Shown here: one piece after another, positions 45,429 to 50,872 of the stretch
How the letters are laid out: each line of letters opens with the position of its first letter
Numbering within the stretch: position 1 is the first letter of the stretch
NCBI GenBank assembly: GCA_964016885.1
Contig: OZ024740.1
Coordinates: 349,184,001-349,248,000, forward strand
Origin: Eledone cirrhosa
Taxonomy: Eukaryota
Direction of reading: 5' to 3'
DNA length: 64,000 bases
Position numbers and translations under genes: made by a program
The notes under the pieces: generated by a model
What the model saw: the letters and a program-made list of their open reading frames with translations, nothing else
What the model was told of the DNA's origin: nothing
The model's database searches: none

Positions 45429-45842
45429 AGAATTGGTGCTCTGAAATAGCCATATATATATGAATGTATATATAGGGTATTTTGCAATACACTTTATGCT
45501 TAATTAAAAGCATTTTGAAGACTTTATGCTATTGTTTTAGAGTAGTGACAGACTCACTTACTTTAATTTCAGCAAACAGGGGGAGATAAAGCTGACACTG
45601 CCTTGTTTCTGCATTTATTGATACTTATCAAAGCCAACTACTCCTCCCATCTGCTGAAATAACGGATGTTATGTTCTTATAGAATTCTAATAAATAATCA
45701 GGAACTGATTATACAGAGCGGTTGCCGGTCAAGCAGAAATTAAAAATTAGAATTGGTGTTCTGAAATAGCCATATATATATGAATGTATATATAGTGTAT
45801 TTTGCAATACACTTTATGCTTAATTAAAAGCATTTTGAAGAC
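45429..45842 (-). mobile_element. Retrozyme-like family C (320 bp unit, partial tandem) with U3-A8 hammerhead at 45590-45635
   Basis: agaattggtg(c/t)tctgaaatagc at 45429 and 45749. Minus strand ggct-TTGATAA-gtat..atgca-GAAA-caaggcagtg-TC-agct. Confidence 0.65.
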
Positions 45843-46329
45843 TTCTCAAACACTAACGCAGGCCTGCGTGTGTATTTGTATTTGTGTATGTATGTATGTA
45901 TGTATGTATGTATGTATGTATGTATGTATGTATGTATGTATGTATGTATGTATGTATGTATGTACGTATGCATGTGTGTGTATGTTCGTATGTATGTATA
46001 TGTTTTCATCACCACTGCTTCTTTTTGTTGTCATTTCTGTTGAAGTTGTTATTGTAACTGTTGTCAAAGTTGACATCCTTATATTCATTTTCTTTGATTT
46101 CTTTCATGTTTTTATCCCCCTAGGGAATTCGTTGACACGCTTCTTTTATTTATTTTCTTCGTTTTCTTCATTCAAATGCATTCATACTGGCTGTCTAAGA
46201 GCCGTACAAATATGACTTATAAAACTTACCAAACTAAAAAACTAAAGGGGCTTCCAGCGCCCCCGAAGCTTCAAACACCCCCTAACGTCCCCTTGCTCGA
46301 ATATAGAATATTGGACGGACCTTGAATCT

Positions 46330-47232
46330 GTTTCTGTTTTCGTAATTCATCAATGCCTATTGCTTTAGCCCTTTCTATTCCATTATTTATTAGTAAGGGT
46401 TGGTACTGTCTTTCGAGCAGAATTTCTTTAATTCTTGAAGGCTTTTATTTCGCGTTTCATAATTGGAGACAATTGGGCAAATTCTTCTTGCTAGATTAAA
46501 AGGGATGTTCGTCTTTGTGTGCTTTGGATTGCTGAGGTGAATAGCAGGTATTGTTTGGAATCTGTTGGTTTGTAGTGTATGTCAGTTTCAATATTTGTGT
46601 CTTTTTCATGATTAAGATGTCCAGAAATGGGAGTTGATCTTGGCTGTATTCCATTGTGAATTAGATGTGGTTATTGATGCTGTTAATTAAATTTTTAAAA
46701 TCATTTAGTTGGTCGAGTGTGTGAGACCAAAGAATAAGGCAGTCATCCAAGTAGCGTTTCCAATTCTCTGATAAATATTTGTGGAAGTTCAAGCCGTATT
46801 TTGATTTGGAGTGTTAGTATATCTGGACTTCCAAGTATGCCATGACTAAGTTGGCGTAAGTTGGAGCAACGTTTGTACCCATCGCAGTCCCCGATATTTG
46901 TTTGTAAGTACTGCCATAGCAATCAAAACTGTTGTTCTGTAAAATAAATGTTAATCCCTCGGTGATGAAGCTTTTTTTCTATTCTGTCAGGTATCTCATT
47001 GGAGTATTTTTCTAGCCAGAATCCTATTGCTTCTAGTCCGTATTGGTGTAGGATCGTCGTGTAGAGATTCACTACATCGAAAGACACAATAATAGTGACG
47101 CTGTTGACATGTTTGGGGAGGTGGTTTAAGAGGTCCATGTCGTCTCTTACAAGGCTTGGTATGTATTTGAGAATTGGTTTTAGTAGTATGTCTATAAAGT
47201 TGCTCAGCCTGTGTGTTTCACACTGTGAGCCG
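46330..47232 (-). mobile_element. Degenerate PLE reverse transcriptase fragment
   Basis: SFDVVNLYTTI, GTAMGTNVAPTYANL, WKRYLDDC, LPFLD, YKPT; many frameshifts. Confidence 0.85.
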
Positions 47233-47283
47233 TAAATAAGTCGACCGTAAATAAGTCGACCGTAAATAAGATTAATAGCTCTA

Positions 47284-47672
47284 GGAGAGCCATGAACGAC
47301 ACCACATCTTTTTAACTTTGATTTTGAAAGTAGGTTTATAATTATTAATTTTGATTATACATTTGAAGCTTCTCGGGGTCTTTTTGGGGAGAATCATAGC
47401 CGGTGTTGGTCCTGGTGTGAAATTCGATCCTGGTCGGCAGTAGGGATCCCGGTAAACCTTTTCAGTTTTTTTCGATGGGAGGTAAAATGAAAACTGAAAA
47501 AGATTACATGTTCCTCACGATCAGGATTGTACCCAAGACCAGGATCTCTACCGCTCTAGTACCTACCGCCAGTCCACTGAGACAGCCACGAAAATCTCCT
47601 GAAAATTCATACTTATAAACCTACTTTCAAAATGTTCAATACAAATTGATATGGTGTCGTTCATGTCTCTCT
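47284..47672. mobile_element. MITE-like element with imperfect ~60 bp terminal inverted repeats
   Basis: gagagccatgaacgacacca...ttttgaaagtaggtttataa mirrors ttataaacctactttcaaaa...tggtgtcgttcatgtctctc. Confidence 0.5.
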
Positions 47673-47817
47673 CAATGTTATTGCTCCCACAAGGTCGACT
47701 TCTAAACCATTTGGGTGTTCCATAAACTACATCCTCATTTAGTTTCTCATCGATCTAGACTCTATCTTAACCTGTAATCTATGTTTCATTTCTGTTGCAC
47801 TTCATTTCTCCCAATCT

Positions 47818-47964
47818 TCTCTCTCTCTCTCTCTCTCTCTCTCTCTCTCTCTCTCTCTCTCTCTCTCTCTCTCTCTCTCTCTCTCTCTCTCTCTCTCTCT
47901 CTCTCTCTCTCTCTCTCTCTCTCTCTCTCTCTCTCTCTCTCTCTCTCTCTCTCTCTCTCTCTCT
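47818..47964. repeat. (CT)n microsatellite, one of many long SSRs such as (TA)n 3002-3132, (TATG)n 45886-45962 and (GT)n 49021-49119
   Basis: Directly visible. Confidence 0.95.
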
Positions 47965-49317
47965 GTGATATTTGAATCTTCTATGATTTCGGCTTACTTT
48001 ATTCATATATATATGTTTTTGTATGTCAGTTAGATTCAAACATACAAGAATATATATATATATATATATATATATATATAATATTAATAAATGGAAACTA
48101 TCTTTATAAAAATATATATATATATAGTACCAATCATTGTAAGTTTGAATCTAACTGACATGCATAACATATATACATGAATAAGTTATATAAGATTCAA
48201 ATATCACAGAGAGAGAGAGAGAGAGAGAGAGAGAGAGAGAGAGAGAGAGAGAGAGAGAGAGAGAGAGAGAGGGGAGGGGAAGAAATGAGGTTTAGTGGTG
48301 GACTGGGTCTAATGAAATTGGTTACCAGAGGTGAAGGGGCCCGCCTACATATAGAATGCTATCATTTAATTTTTATAATGAATAAATAACATTTAAAAAA
48401 AATACATATGTGGAAATAAAACAGTGCAATCAAATTTTTCCGGGAAAATATCTTACCGTCTCCAATAAAAATGTATTTTGCGAAATCCAGAGAGTTTCAA
48501 TAATGACTCACTCAATAATTTCCCACTCACTCAATATATATATATATGTGCGTGTGTGTGTGTGTGTGTGTATATACATATATATATTCATATATATATA
48601 CATGTATATATATATACATATATATATATATATATGTGTGTGTGTGTATATATATACATGTATATATATATGAATATATATATGTATATATATATACATG
48701 TATATATATATATATATATGTATATATATATGAATATATATATGTATATATACATATATATATTCTTATATATATACATGTATATATATATACATATATA
48801 TATATATGTGTGTATATATATATATATATATATATATATATATATATATATATATATATATACACTACGTTCACCACTAATTGATTTGACAGATGTCTTT
48901 AACACATTAGTATCAAACATTAATTTGTCAGTAGCTCGTGTGTATGTGTAAGTATATATATGAGTAAGTATATATATATGTGTGTGTGTGTGTTTCTGTG
49001 TGTCTGTGGGTCTGTGGGTCTGTGTGTGTGTGTGTGTGTGTGTGTGTGTGTGTGTGTGTGTGTGTGTGTGTGTGTGTGTGTGTGTGTGTGTGTGTGTGTG
49101 TGTGTGTGTGTGTGTGTGTTGCATGCATGAATTCACTAAGCTTTAGATTTAGTAGAATGTACAACCACTGATTGCAGGTTTTTGTACTATCGTATATTTT
49201 GGTTTCTAATAATTCCTGAGAAATTGGTTGACCAAATCCTTTGCCTAATTGTTTTATTTATTCTTTTTTTAAATTTATACTTTCACTCAGACTTCATGTA
49301 TTTTTTTTTAAATACTA

Positions 49318-49413
49318 CAGTGGGCCCTGCAATGCTACTGCTGGCTCCTGCAATGCTACCGTGGGCCCCCTGGCGCCCACTTGCCATTGAGCAACCTGGC
49401 CAGTCCGCCACTG
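49318..49413. mobile_element. Tiny MITE-like element TA-CAGTGG...CCACTG-TA
   Basis: GC-rich 96 bp island with 6 bp inverted ends and TA on both sides. Confidence 0.35.
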
Positions 49414-49864
49414 TATATATAAGATCTGTATATAAATACAAGGCTACGAATTGGCGCAGTTATTAGAGCAACGTACAGACTGCTTTGGGATATGTGTATC
49501 GACACTCAACAAAATCAACTTTGAATATCATCCATTTGATGTCGATAAAAATGTACCGGTCAAATAATGCTGTAGATTCTTTCTCTCGCTCTCTCTCTCT
49601 CTCTCTCCCTTCTCTTTCTCTCTCTCTCTCTCTATATATATATATATATATATATATATATATACACACAGATAAATCCACCAATTAATGGTAGGGTCTA
49701 AGCCGTATGAAGAACTCAATGTAATCCGTATGTAGAAGATGTCGTGAAGCAAAGTTTAAAATACAAAATTTCAACGATATAATTCATTGGATACAGAGTC
49801 AAAAATACAAATAGTGAAAACAATCAAATTAAACAAAAAACGGTTAATTCAAAGTAAAACTCAT

Positions 49865-49995
49865 TATTTTACGATCGTTTCTGGGGGGTAGTTCCCCGTA
49901 TGTCCATTCTATTATTGATCTATGTAAAATATATTACAAATTATCATAGTAAGAAAATATACATACGTCTTTTCTACCCGCCGTCTTCAGAAATA
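49865..49995 (-). ncRNA. Type I hammerhead with ~80 nt loop II, in fold-back 49813-50158
   Basis: Minus strand tattt-CTGAAGA-cggcgggtag...ctacccccca-GAAA-cgatcg-TA-aaata. Confidence 0.65.
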
Positions 49996-50276
49996 AATCA
50001 AGACGTATGTATATTTTCTTACTATGATAATTTGTAATATATTTTACATAGATCAATAATAGAATGGACATACGGGGAACTACCCCCCAGAAACGATCGT
50101 AAAATAATGAGTTTTACTATGAATTAACCGTTTTCTGTTTAATTTCATTGTTTTCACTATATATATATATATATATATATATATATATATCGTTTCTGAA
50201 TTTGTTTAGCAAGATGACCCTCCCAAAGTATAACAATATATATATATATATATATATATATATATATATATATATA

Positions 50277-50872
50277 TTGGTGCTCTGAAATAGCGATATA
50301 TATATGAATATATATATAGTGTATTTTGCAATACACTGTATGATTAATTAAAAGCATTTTGAAGACCATATGCTATTGTTTTAAAGTAGCGACATTGTCG
50401 CTTACTTAAATTTTCAGCAGACAGGGGGAGATAAGTTGACAGCGTTGTTTCGTACTGTTTTGTACTTTTCAAAACTCACTACTCTCCCTGTCTGCCGAAA
50501 ATTATGTGTGTTGGATTCTTATAGAATTCCAGTAACAATCAGGAACTGATTTTACAGACCGGTCGTCGGCCCAGCAGAAAATTTAAGTAAGCGACAATGT
50601 CGCTACTTTAAAACAATAGCGTATGGTCTTCAAAATGCTTTTAATTAAGCATACAGTGTATTGCAAAATACACTATATATATATTCATATATATATCGCT
50701 ATTTCAGAGCACCAATTCTAATTTTCAATTTCTGCTGGGCCGGCGACCGCTCTGTAAAATCAGTTCCTGATTGTTACTGGAATTCTATAAGAATCCAATA
50801 CACATAATTTTCGGCAGACGGGGAGAGTAGTGAGTTTTGATAAGAACAAAACAGTACGAAACAACGCTGTAA
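50277..50872. mobile_element. Retrozyme-like family C, fold-back insertion; hammerheads 50434-50476 (-) and 50833-50872 (+)
   Basis: Homologous to 45429-45842. agtt-TTGAAAA-gtac-aaaaca-gtac-GAAA-caacgctg-TC-aact. Confidence 0.7.

Follow-up and report, generated by a model that had tools for sequence, protein, structure and literature searches.

The closest described counterparts of the repeat treated here are the animal non-long terminal repeat (non-LTR) retrozymes defined by Cervera and de la Peña in 2020 (PMC7229834), noncoding repeats of 170 to 400 bp with a GC content below 50% and one type I hammerhead ribozyme per unit. They combine a highly self-paired predicted RNA with thousands of genomic copies, short tandems and the co-occurrence of Penelope elements (PMC7229834; bioRxiv 10.64898/2026.07.22.740005). 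A 64-kb stretch of the 3.0-Gb assembly of Eledone cirrhosa (contig OZ024740.1, positions 349,184,001 to 349,248,000), hereafter the window, is AT-rich, dense in microsatellites and scattered with retroelement fragments, and it holds two insertions of a ~320-bp repeat family sharing all of these features, each carrying a type I hammerhead motif that reads U3-U4-G5-A6-N7-A8-A9. Like retrozymes, the family consists of noncoding units within the 150- to 450-bp range, arranged in tandem, with one type I hammerhead each and a strongly self-paired predicted RNA. We consider it probable that it is a nonautonomous retrozyme copied by Penelope enzymes, in which the pair between core positions 3 and 8 switched from C3-G8 to U3-A8 on one branch. 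It differs from the described animal retrozymes in that most copies are U3-A8, a term absent from the main text of PMC7229834, and in that its insertions are dominated by inverted arms and by 3' ends fixed at two sites beside (AT)n.

Three further systems bear on the comparison. The Penelope-like (Cercyon) hammerheads of Schistosoma mansoni share the U3-A8 pair, the Penelope link and a high copy number (~1,300), but those motifs are minimal, heterogeneous and mostly single (Cervera and de la Peña 2014, PMC4209133), whereas ours have a stem III of 3 to 5 bp and a long stem I, and the presence of C3-G8 sister subfamilies lets the switch be placed on a tree. Among the natural core variants compiled by Perreault et al. 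(2011, PMC3088659), several have U3-A8, reported there to be active in vitro with reference to earlier work, and a U10.1-U11.1 mismatch recalls our subfamily F; the insertions given in the consulted part of that paper (2a/2b, A6a and U13a) include none between 11.1 and G12, as seen in our subfamily A. The Poseidon-clade Penelope element of the green anole (Frangieh et al. 2024, PMC11167929) likewise has two reverse transcriptase (RT) start sites downstream of its hammerhead, an optional tail and an AT-rich target, but it is autonomous, starts ~90 nt past the cut and has a C3-G8 core, while the family here encodes no protein. In the literature searched, mostly the main texts of open-access papers, the wording "U3-A8" occurred in PMC4209133 alone, no specific description of an insertion between 11.1 and G12 was found, and the cephalopod papers yielded no hammerhead study of this family; the main text of an octopus repeat annotation (PMC13282606) contains neither "ribozyme" nor "hammerhead." The U3-A8 core is a published variant, Penelope-linked animal repeats included, and the family adds a well-supported new case to a known kind of mobile element.

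Unit structure and the core switch

The two insertions comprise the following features (positions in the window):

45429 to 45748, minus strand: full 320-bp unit of subfamily A (U3-A8 with an extra A after C11.1), sharing 94 to 97% identity with the next 40 genomic matches in rank
45749 to 45844, minus strand: 5'-truncated partial tandem copy (unit positions 225 to 320) ahead of the full unit, 98% identical to locus L031 1770 to 1865
45590 to 45637, minus strand: hammerhead motif copy 1, type I, with U3 at 45631, A8 at 45626, the extra A at 45610 and a predicted cut after C17 at 45594
45566 to 45660, minus strand: long stem extending hammerhead stem I, copy 1 (predicted fold and covariation)
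45544 to 45558, minus strand: side hairpin 3' of the long stem, locus 1, covarying between subfamilies
45394 to 45428, unstranded: (AT)n microsatellite adjoining the 3' end of the locus 1 element, the putative insertion target
50278 to 50590, minus strand: left arm of locus 2, a nearly full unit of subfamily C (U3-A8)
50433 to 50477, minus strand: hammerhead motif copy 2, type I, intact, with U3 at 50472, A8 at 50467 and a predicted cut after C17 at 50438
50409 to 50503, minus strand: long stem extending stem I, copy 2 (predicted fold)
50388 to 50402, minus strand: side hairpin of locus 2, compensatory C-G version
50236 to 50277, unstranded: (AT)n microsatellite adjoining the 3' end of the left arm of locus 2
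50574 to 50870, plus strand: right inverted arm of locus 2, a partial unit that runs on into the beginning of another and ends at U16.1 (compare locus L001 1745 to 1887 and 1900 to 2048)
50832 to 50870, plus strand: hammerhead motif copy 3, truncated, with U3 at 50837, A8 at 50842, a stem II mismatch and no C17

In locus 1 a 96-bp partial tandem stands ahead of a full unit, locus 2 consists of two outward-pointing arms, and both adjoin (AT)n. A preliminary description of this DNA had placed three hammerheads of the form UUGA(U/A)AA here, and all three cores were recovered at the positions it gave, with U3, A8 and N7 as it stated; it had missed the extra A of copy 1 and the truncation of copy 3 before C17. 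Copy 1 has U at N7 and its extra A lies between C11.1 and G12; in comparison with sister copies it also carries private damage both in stem II, where a U-G wobble occurs, and in stem III. Copy 2, the sole clean motif of the three, has stem I, the core U3-U4-G5-A6-A7-A8-A9, a 4-bp stem II, GAAA, a short stem III and GUC. Its A7 is private: of 93 genomic matches to its exact context (all U3-A8, none C3-G8), a manual count gave 1 with A7, 23 with C7 and 69 with U7. Copy 3 has U at N7, its stem II contains an A.A mismatch, and its sequence breaks off at U16.1 (50870); lacking C17 and the 3' arm of the long stem, it cannot form an intact ribozyme. Both long stems of the preliminary description form in the predicted folds, and the window units fold better than shuffled sequences (z = -4.2 for locus 1 and -8.6 for locus 2).

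The repeat is present in thousands of copies. Three DNA searches returned 1,793, 1,886 and 2,513 first-look candidates, of which 40 were scored in each case, and the unit profile matched 4 of 80 randomly drawn 10-kb stretches (800 kb), which extrapolates, as a loose figure, to about ten thousand loci. Exact core patterns with positions 3, 7 and 8 left free gave 1,381, 655 and 603 genome matches (~2,600 altogether, the first two patterns possibly overlapping slightly) and none in any reversed control, so that the hammerhead cores are not a product of chance. Judged by eye among the first 100 matches listed for each, the first pattern gave 90 U3-A8, 6 C3-G8 and 4 mismatched cores (98 C3-G8 in its whole count), the second 95 U3-A8, no C3-G8 and 5 mismatched cores, with an extra base before G12 in 37, and the third, drawn for subfamily F, 87 C3-G8, 1 U3-A8 and 12 mismatched. 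The consensus of the clade holding the window copies is hence U3-A8 (the 90 and 95 of 100 just given) rather than canonical or a mixture of unpaired states. U3-A8 cores are not rare in this genome; as the preliminary description had cautioned, a CUGANGA pattern misses such copies, which make up 8 of the 27 hammerhead descriptor matches in the 800 kb of random sequence (reversed control, 1 match).

We resolved six subfamilies, whose cores were counted in 160 units, leaving aside two unclassified units, the chimeric-looking unit L129 and a pair of U3-A8 units that lie in an F locus but belong to a different subfamily. Pair 3-8 is U-A in subfamilies A (32/32), B (29/30), C (26/27) and E (17/20) and C-G in D (18/18) and F (33/33), the units of D having been retrieved with a C3-G8 pattern and those of B and E with patterns in which most core bases were fixed. 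The compensatory U3-A8 of the preliminary description is accordingly the majority state in four subfamilies on one branch, and the other two are homologous and C3-G8: C3-G8 copies align over the whole unit at ~80% identity to copy 1, and the more distant subfamily F, at ~75%, was found by profile in random sequence and was thus selected without reference to its core. Unit length stays near 320 bp in all six, and the 3' half is the more conserved part. At the other core positions, 9 of 9 share their commonest base across all six subfamilies, against 25 of 76 neighboring positions. Subfamily F closes stem II with U.U (25/33) or A-U (7/33) instead of G-C and has U17 in 23 of 33 units.

All U3-A8 copies fall on one side of a single branch (support 100/99 in a 54-row tree), and the same split is recovered with a Shimodaira-Hasegawa-like approximate likelihood ratio of 97 when all ribozyme columns are dropped (48 rows). 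This topology points to a single origin of U3-A8 from an ancestral C3-G8, the direction resting on a midpoint root on the F branch and not on an outside root. Subfamily A, with its extra A, is nested in B; its ranking as the youngest subfamily, from an inner identity of 96%, was dropped, those copies having been picked as best matches, and the nesting was retained.

The paired structure is borne out by covariation among 43 copies (41 distinct sequences). Of 1,464 alignment cells 96.7% are paired. Two-sided changes affect 11 of the 36 pairs and occupy 96 cells, where shuffles gave 26.9 and slid controls never more than 11; such cells count sequences rather than events, so that kinship inflates the figures, and the changes fall on different subfamily branches. 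Two-sided changes occur in stems I, II and III, the lower stem, the side hairpin and pair 3-8, which is U-A in 30, C-G in 9 and otherwise in 2 of the distinct copies. The side-hairpin change between the two loci (agtga/tcact versus agcga/tcgct) is as first described, and across the 41 copies the pair is U-A in 32, C-G in 7, U-G in 1 and unpaired in 1. The type I core (U4, G5, A6, A9, G12, A13, A14, A15.1-U16.1 and H17, with stem I open) is complete in copy 2 and in the subfamily majorities, subfamily A departing by its one extra base, and incomplete in copy 3; a Watson-Crick pair 3-8 is present in every subfamily. Loop 2 is 5 to 6 nt long and stem I has an internal loop, both at positions where, we presume, loop 1-loop 2 tertiary contacts form.

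Rfam hammerhead models gave no match at gathering score in five loci, one C3-G8 copy among them, and no hammerhead family at an E value of at most 1 in window positions 50290 to 50950; the whole-window scan was dominated by microsatellite matches. A DNA-level hairpin repeat, that is, a miniature inverted-repeat transposable element (MITE) or a satellite, with a chance likeness to a hammerhead could explain this silence, and inverted arms can resemble MITE ends. The core, however, is kept strand specifically while the stems covary, G-U pairs included, and 5' ends are ragged, 3' ends fixed and arm break points different at each locus, which largely refutes such an origin and leaves it very improbable. 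The absence of an Rfam match, which extends to a C3-G8 copy, reflects a limit of the models and is not a defining trait of the family.

Insertion anatomy and the probable Penelope link

Insertion anatomy was read from 357 pieces in 121 loci, a nonrandom set chosen for full units or the core pattern, which contained 237 arms. Most arms (205) end at one of two sites, 108 at unit positions 285 to 300 and 97 at 312 to 320, with 32 ending elsewhere; the former site lies inside the unit's own AT-rich hairpin, which blurs its exact place. An (AT)n tract follows 75 of the 108, 86 of the 97 and 3 of the 32, against a background of 6.9%. Both orientations occur in 90 of the 121 loci, 108 arms exceed one unit, and most arms span one to two units, the longest reaching 994 nt. 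Among the 32 odd 3' ends, 3 lie near the cut (q154, q157 and q162), two of these at U16.1 (in the window and in L135), too few to use. Different subfamilies stand side by side at single loci (L056, L252 and L148), which suggests repeated targeting of one microsatellite.

Partial tandems, inverted 5'-truncated arms, an optional 3' tail (here ~23 to 30 nt) and microsatellite targets are all present in the family, and they match traits of Penelope elements, for which partial tandems, inverted 5'-truncated copies, a 30- to 40-bp tail and a microsatellite bias are described (Craig et al., PMC8557442). For the green anole element, AT-rich nicking of both strands is reported in vitro, as are two internal sites of RT initiation, which account for the tail (PMC11167929). 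Penelope-type RT fragments are frequent in random stretches of the genome. Within the window, the broken RT frames at 37744 to 39913 and 53989 to 55505, whose Pfam match is a weak RVT_1 and which have many relatives in the random stretches, are by their motifs presumably Penelope-type.

This anatomy also raises the question of whether the copies are mere 5'-truncated ends (pseudo-LTRs) of an autonomous Penelope element rather than an independent family, an explanation we regard as improbable. It would account for the Penelope-like insertion pattern (PMC8557442), and most Penelope hammerheads are scattered remnants (PMC4209133). Upstream of our unit, though, lies another unit or an inverted arm, in arms of up to 994 nt, and L260 has four units in tandem; family loci contain a few Penelope-type RT fragments (L038, L091, L232 and L253), which, as far as checked, are not joined to the 5' side of a unit; and the full stems I to III contrast with the minimal hammerhead of Penelope ends (PMC4209133).

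Predicted cleavage and proposed mode of spread

Self-cleavage of the hammerhead is predicted from its core, and U3-A8 likely keeps that core working because the base pair is kept. The preferred scenario, a retrozyme copied by Penelope enzymes, would run as follows. The tandem locus would be transcribed, and the hammerhead would likely cut after GUC, two units probably assisting each other by pairing through their self-complementary stem III; ligation of the unit-length RNA would give a circle. Next, (AT)n DNA would be nicked by a Penelope RT/GIY-YIG protein, which would start reverse transcription at one of two fixed sites, ~140 and 165 to 170 nt downstream of the cut, and synthesis would pass one unit length, often from both DNA ends, giving partial tandems with inverted arms. 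The self-complementarity of stem III, a feature of the U3-A8 subfamilies, together with the preference of the predicted monomer for other pairing, fits the dimer-dependent cleavage described for animal hammerheads (PMC4209133, PMC7229834). In sequencing run X4, in which a ribosomal protein gene is spliced at GT..AG, 52 contigs fall on the unit, contigs being unable to show ends, strand or circles; the deepest (depth 398) has U at 11.1 and just 29 letters beyond the cut site and was not used as evidence of circles or cleavage.

Several observations weigh against this scenario. Predicted monomer folds favor an alternative pairing, stem III having a probability of 0.24 in one of 11 copies and no more than 0.04 in each of the remaining 10. 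In an alternative fold, the 5' strand of stem III is taken up by positions 2.3 to 5 (92% paired, without two-sided change relative to the commonest pair); this conserved fold may be an off state or a by-product. Core conservation is tested freely by subfamilies A, C and F only, since the patterns used for B, D and E fix most core bases. The 5' break points are spread, with 7 of 202 near the cut site against 7.9 expected. When four window RT fragments were compared with the family loci and six wider stretches, no frame linked to the unit, as an autonomous partner sharing it would have, was found. The extra-A sublineage, with its additional base inside the core, still has 196 exact matches genome-wide. 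From the literature, eight of nine Xenopus retrozyme dimers are reported to give no cleavage (bioRxiv 10.64898/2026.07.22.740005), and ribozyme mutants had no effect on in vitro insertion of the anole Penelope in the experiments reported (PMC11167929).

Some of this would also be expected of a Penelope-mobilized nonautonomous element copied from uncleaved linear tandem transcripts, its hammerhead selected weakly or for another step (e.g., release of the RNA from a host transcript) and a circle being unneeded. The lack of 5' ends at the cut site and the 29 of 237 arms that cross at least two cut sites are equally compatible with an uncut multimer and with a circle, the extra-A lineage was amplified, and the anole element inserts in vitro without need of its ribozyme and gave no reads starting or ending at the ribozyme cut site, as reported (PMC11167929). 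Identities within loci (0.953 to 0.956) and between loci (0.945) are too close to separate a circular from a linear template. Against a linear template, core and stems are kept across subfamilies only 75 to 80% alike, with repeated two-sided changes, which requires that selection has long acted on the hammerhead fold; unit length remains close to 320 bp throughout; and related animal repeats of matching size and type form abundant circles (PMC7229834). We hold copying from uncleaved transcripts to be possible but unlikely.

The extra-A sublineage is the least ordinary part of the family. A bolder and less likely reading is a natural stepwise series within one retrozyme, from C3-G8 to U3-A8 to U3-A8 with an extra A between C11.1 and the general base G12, the last form still self-cleaving and having spread to ~200 copies, in which case the core would tolerate a bulge beside its catalytic base; were it uncleaved, Penelope-driven retrozyme spread would need no ribozyme cutting.

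Other hammerhead motifs in the window and significance of the family

A second, unrelated hammerhead family forms an inverted pair at 31054 to 31297 and 31364 to 31607, with U3-A8 motifs at 31076 to 31115 and 31546 to 31585 and a minimal palindromic stem III. It has 6,872 exact pattern matches in the genome, the first 100 listed being nearly identical and all U3-A8, the mark of a very young burst; no RT frame was found beside it in 12 loci. A third hammerhead-like motif, again U3-A8 with a palindromic stem III, was seen as a single copy in random sequence (L069, minus strand, ~6820 from the end). Canonical C3-G8 hammerheads lie in an inverted pair at 41608 to 41969 and 42061 to 42422, with weak matches to Rfam HH9 (37.7 bits, below gathering score), and C3-G8 hammerhead-like motifs with a long stem II occur in other repeat families (9858 to 9913, 21751 to 21815, 24544 to 24608 and 44770 to 44824). 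A 948-bp inverted repeat (21911 to 22858 and 23275 to 24222, 99% complementary) is flanked by a hammerhead-bearing family. The window also holds an IL-17 frame at 60122 to 60688 on the minus strand (Pfam PF06083) and an 81% identical second copy at 13661 to 14151, perhaps part of a tandem IL-17 cluster.

In the ~320-bp family the hammerhead core has undergone a compensatory switch, a clean natural case of modest importance, since the two states coexist among its subfamilies and a single origin is inferred. The family also shows that CUGANGA descriptors and Rfam undercount animal hammerheads. Its two fixed 3' ends, inverted arms and (AT)n targets support the proposed mobilization of animal retrozymes by Penelope enzymes, and its subfamilies offer ready-made constructs for asking whether Penelope-type mobilization depends on ribozyme cleavage.

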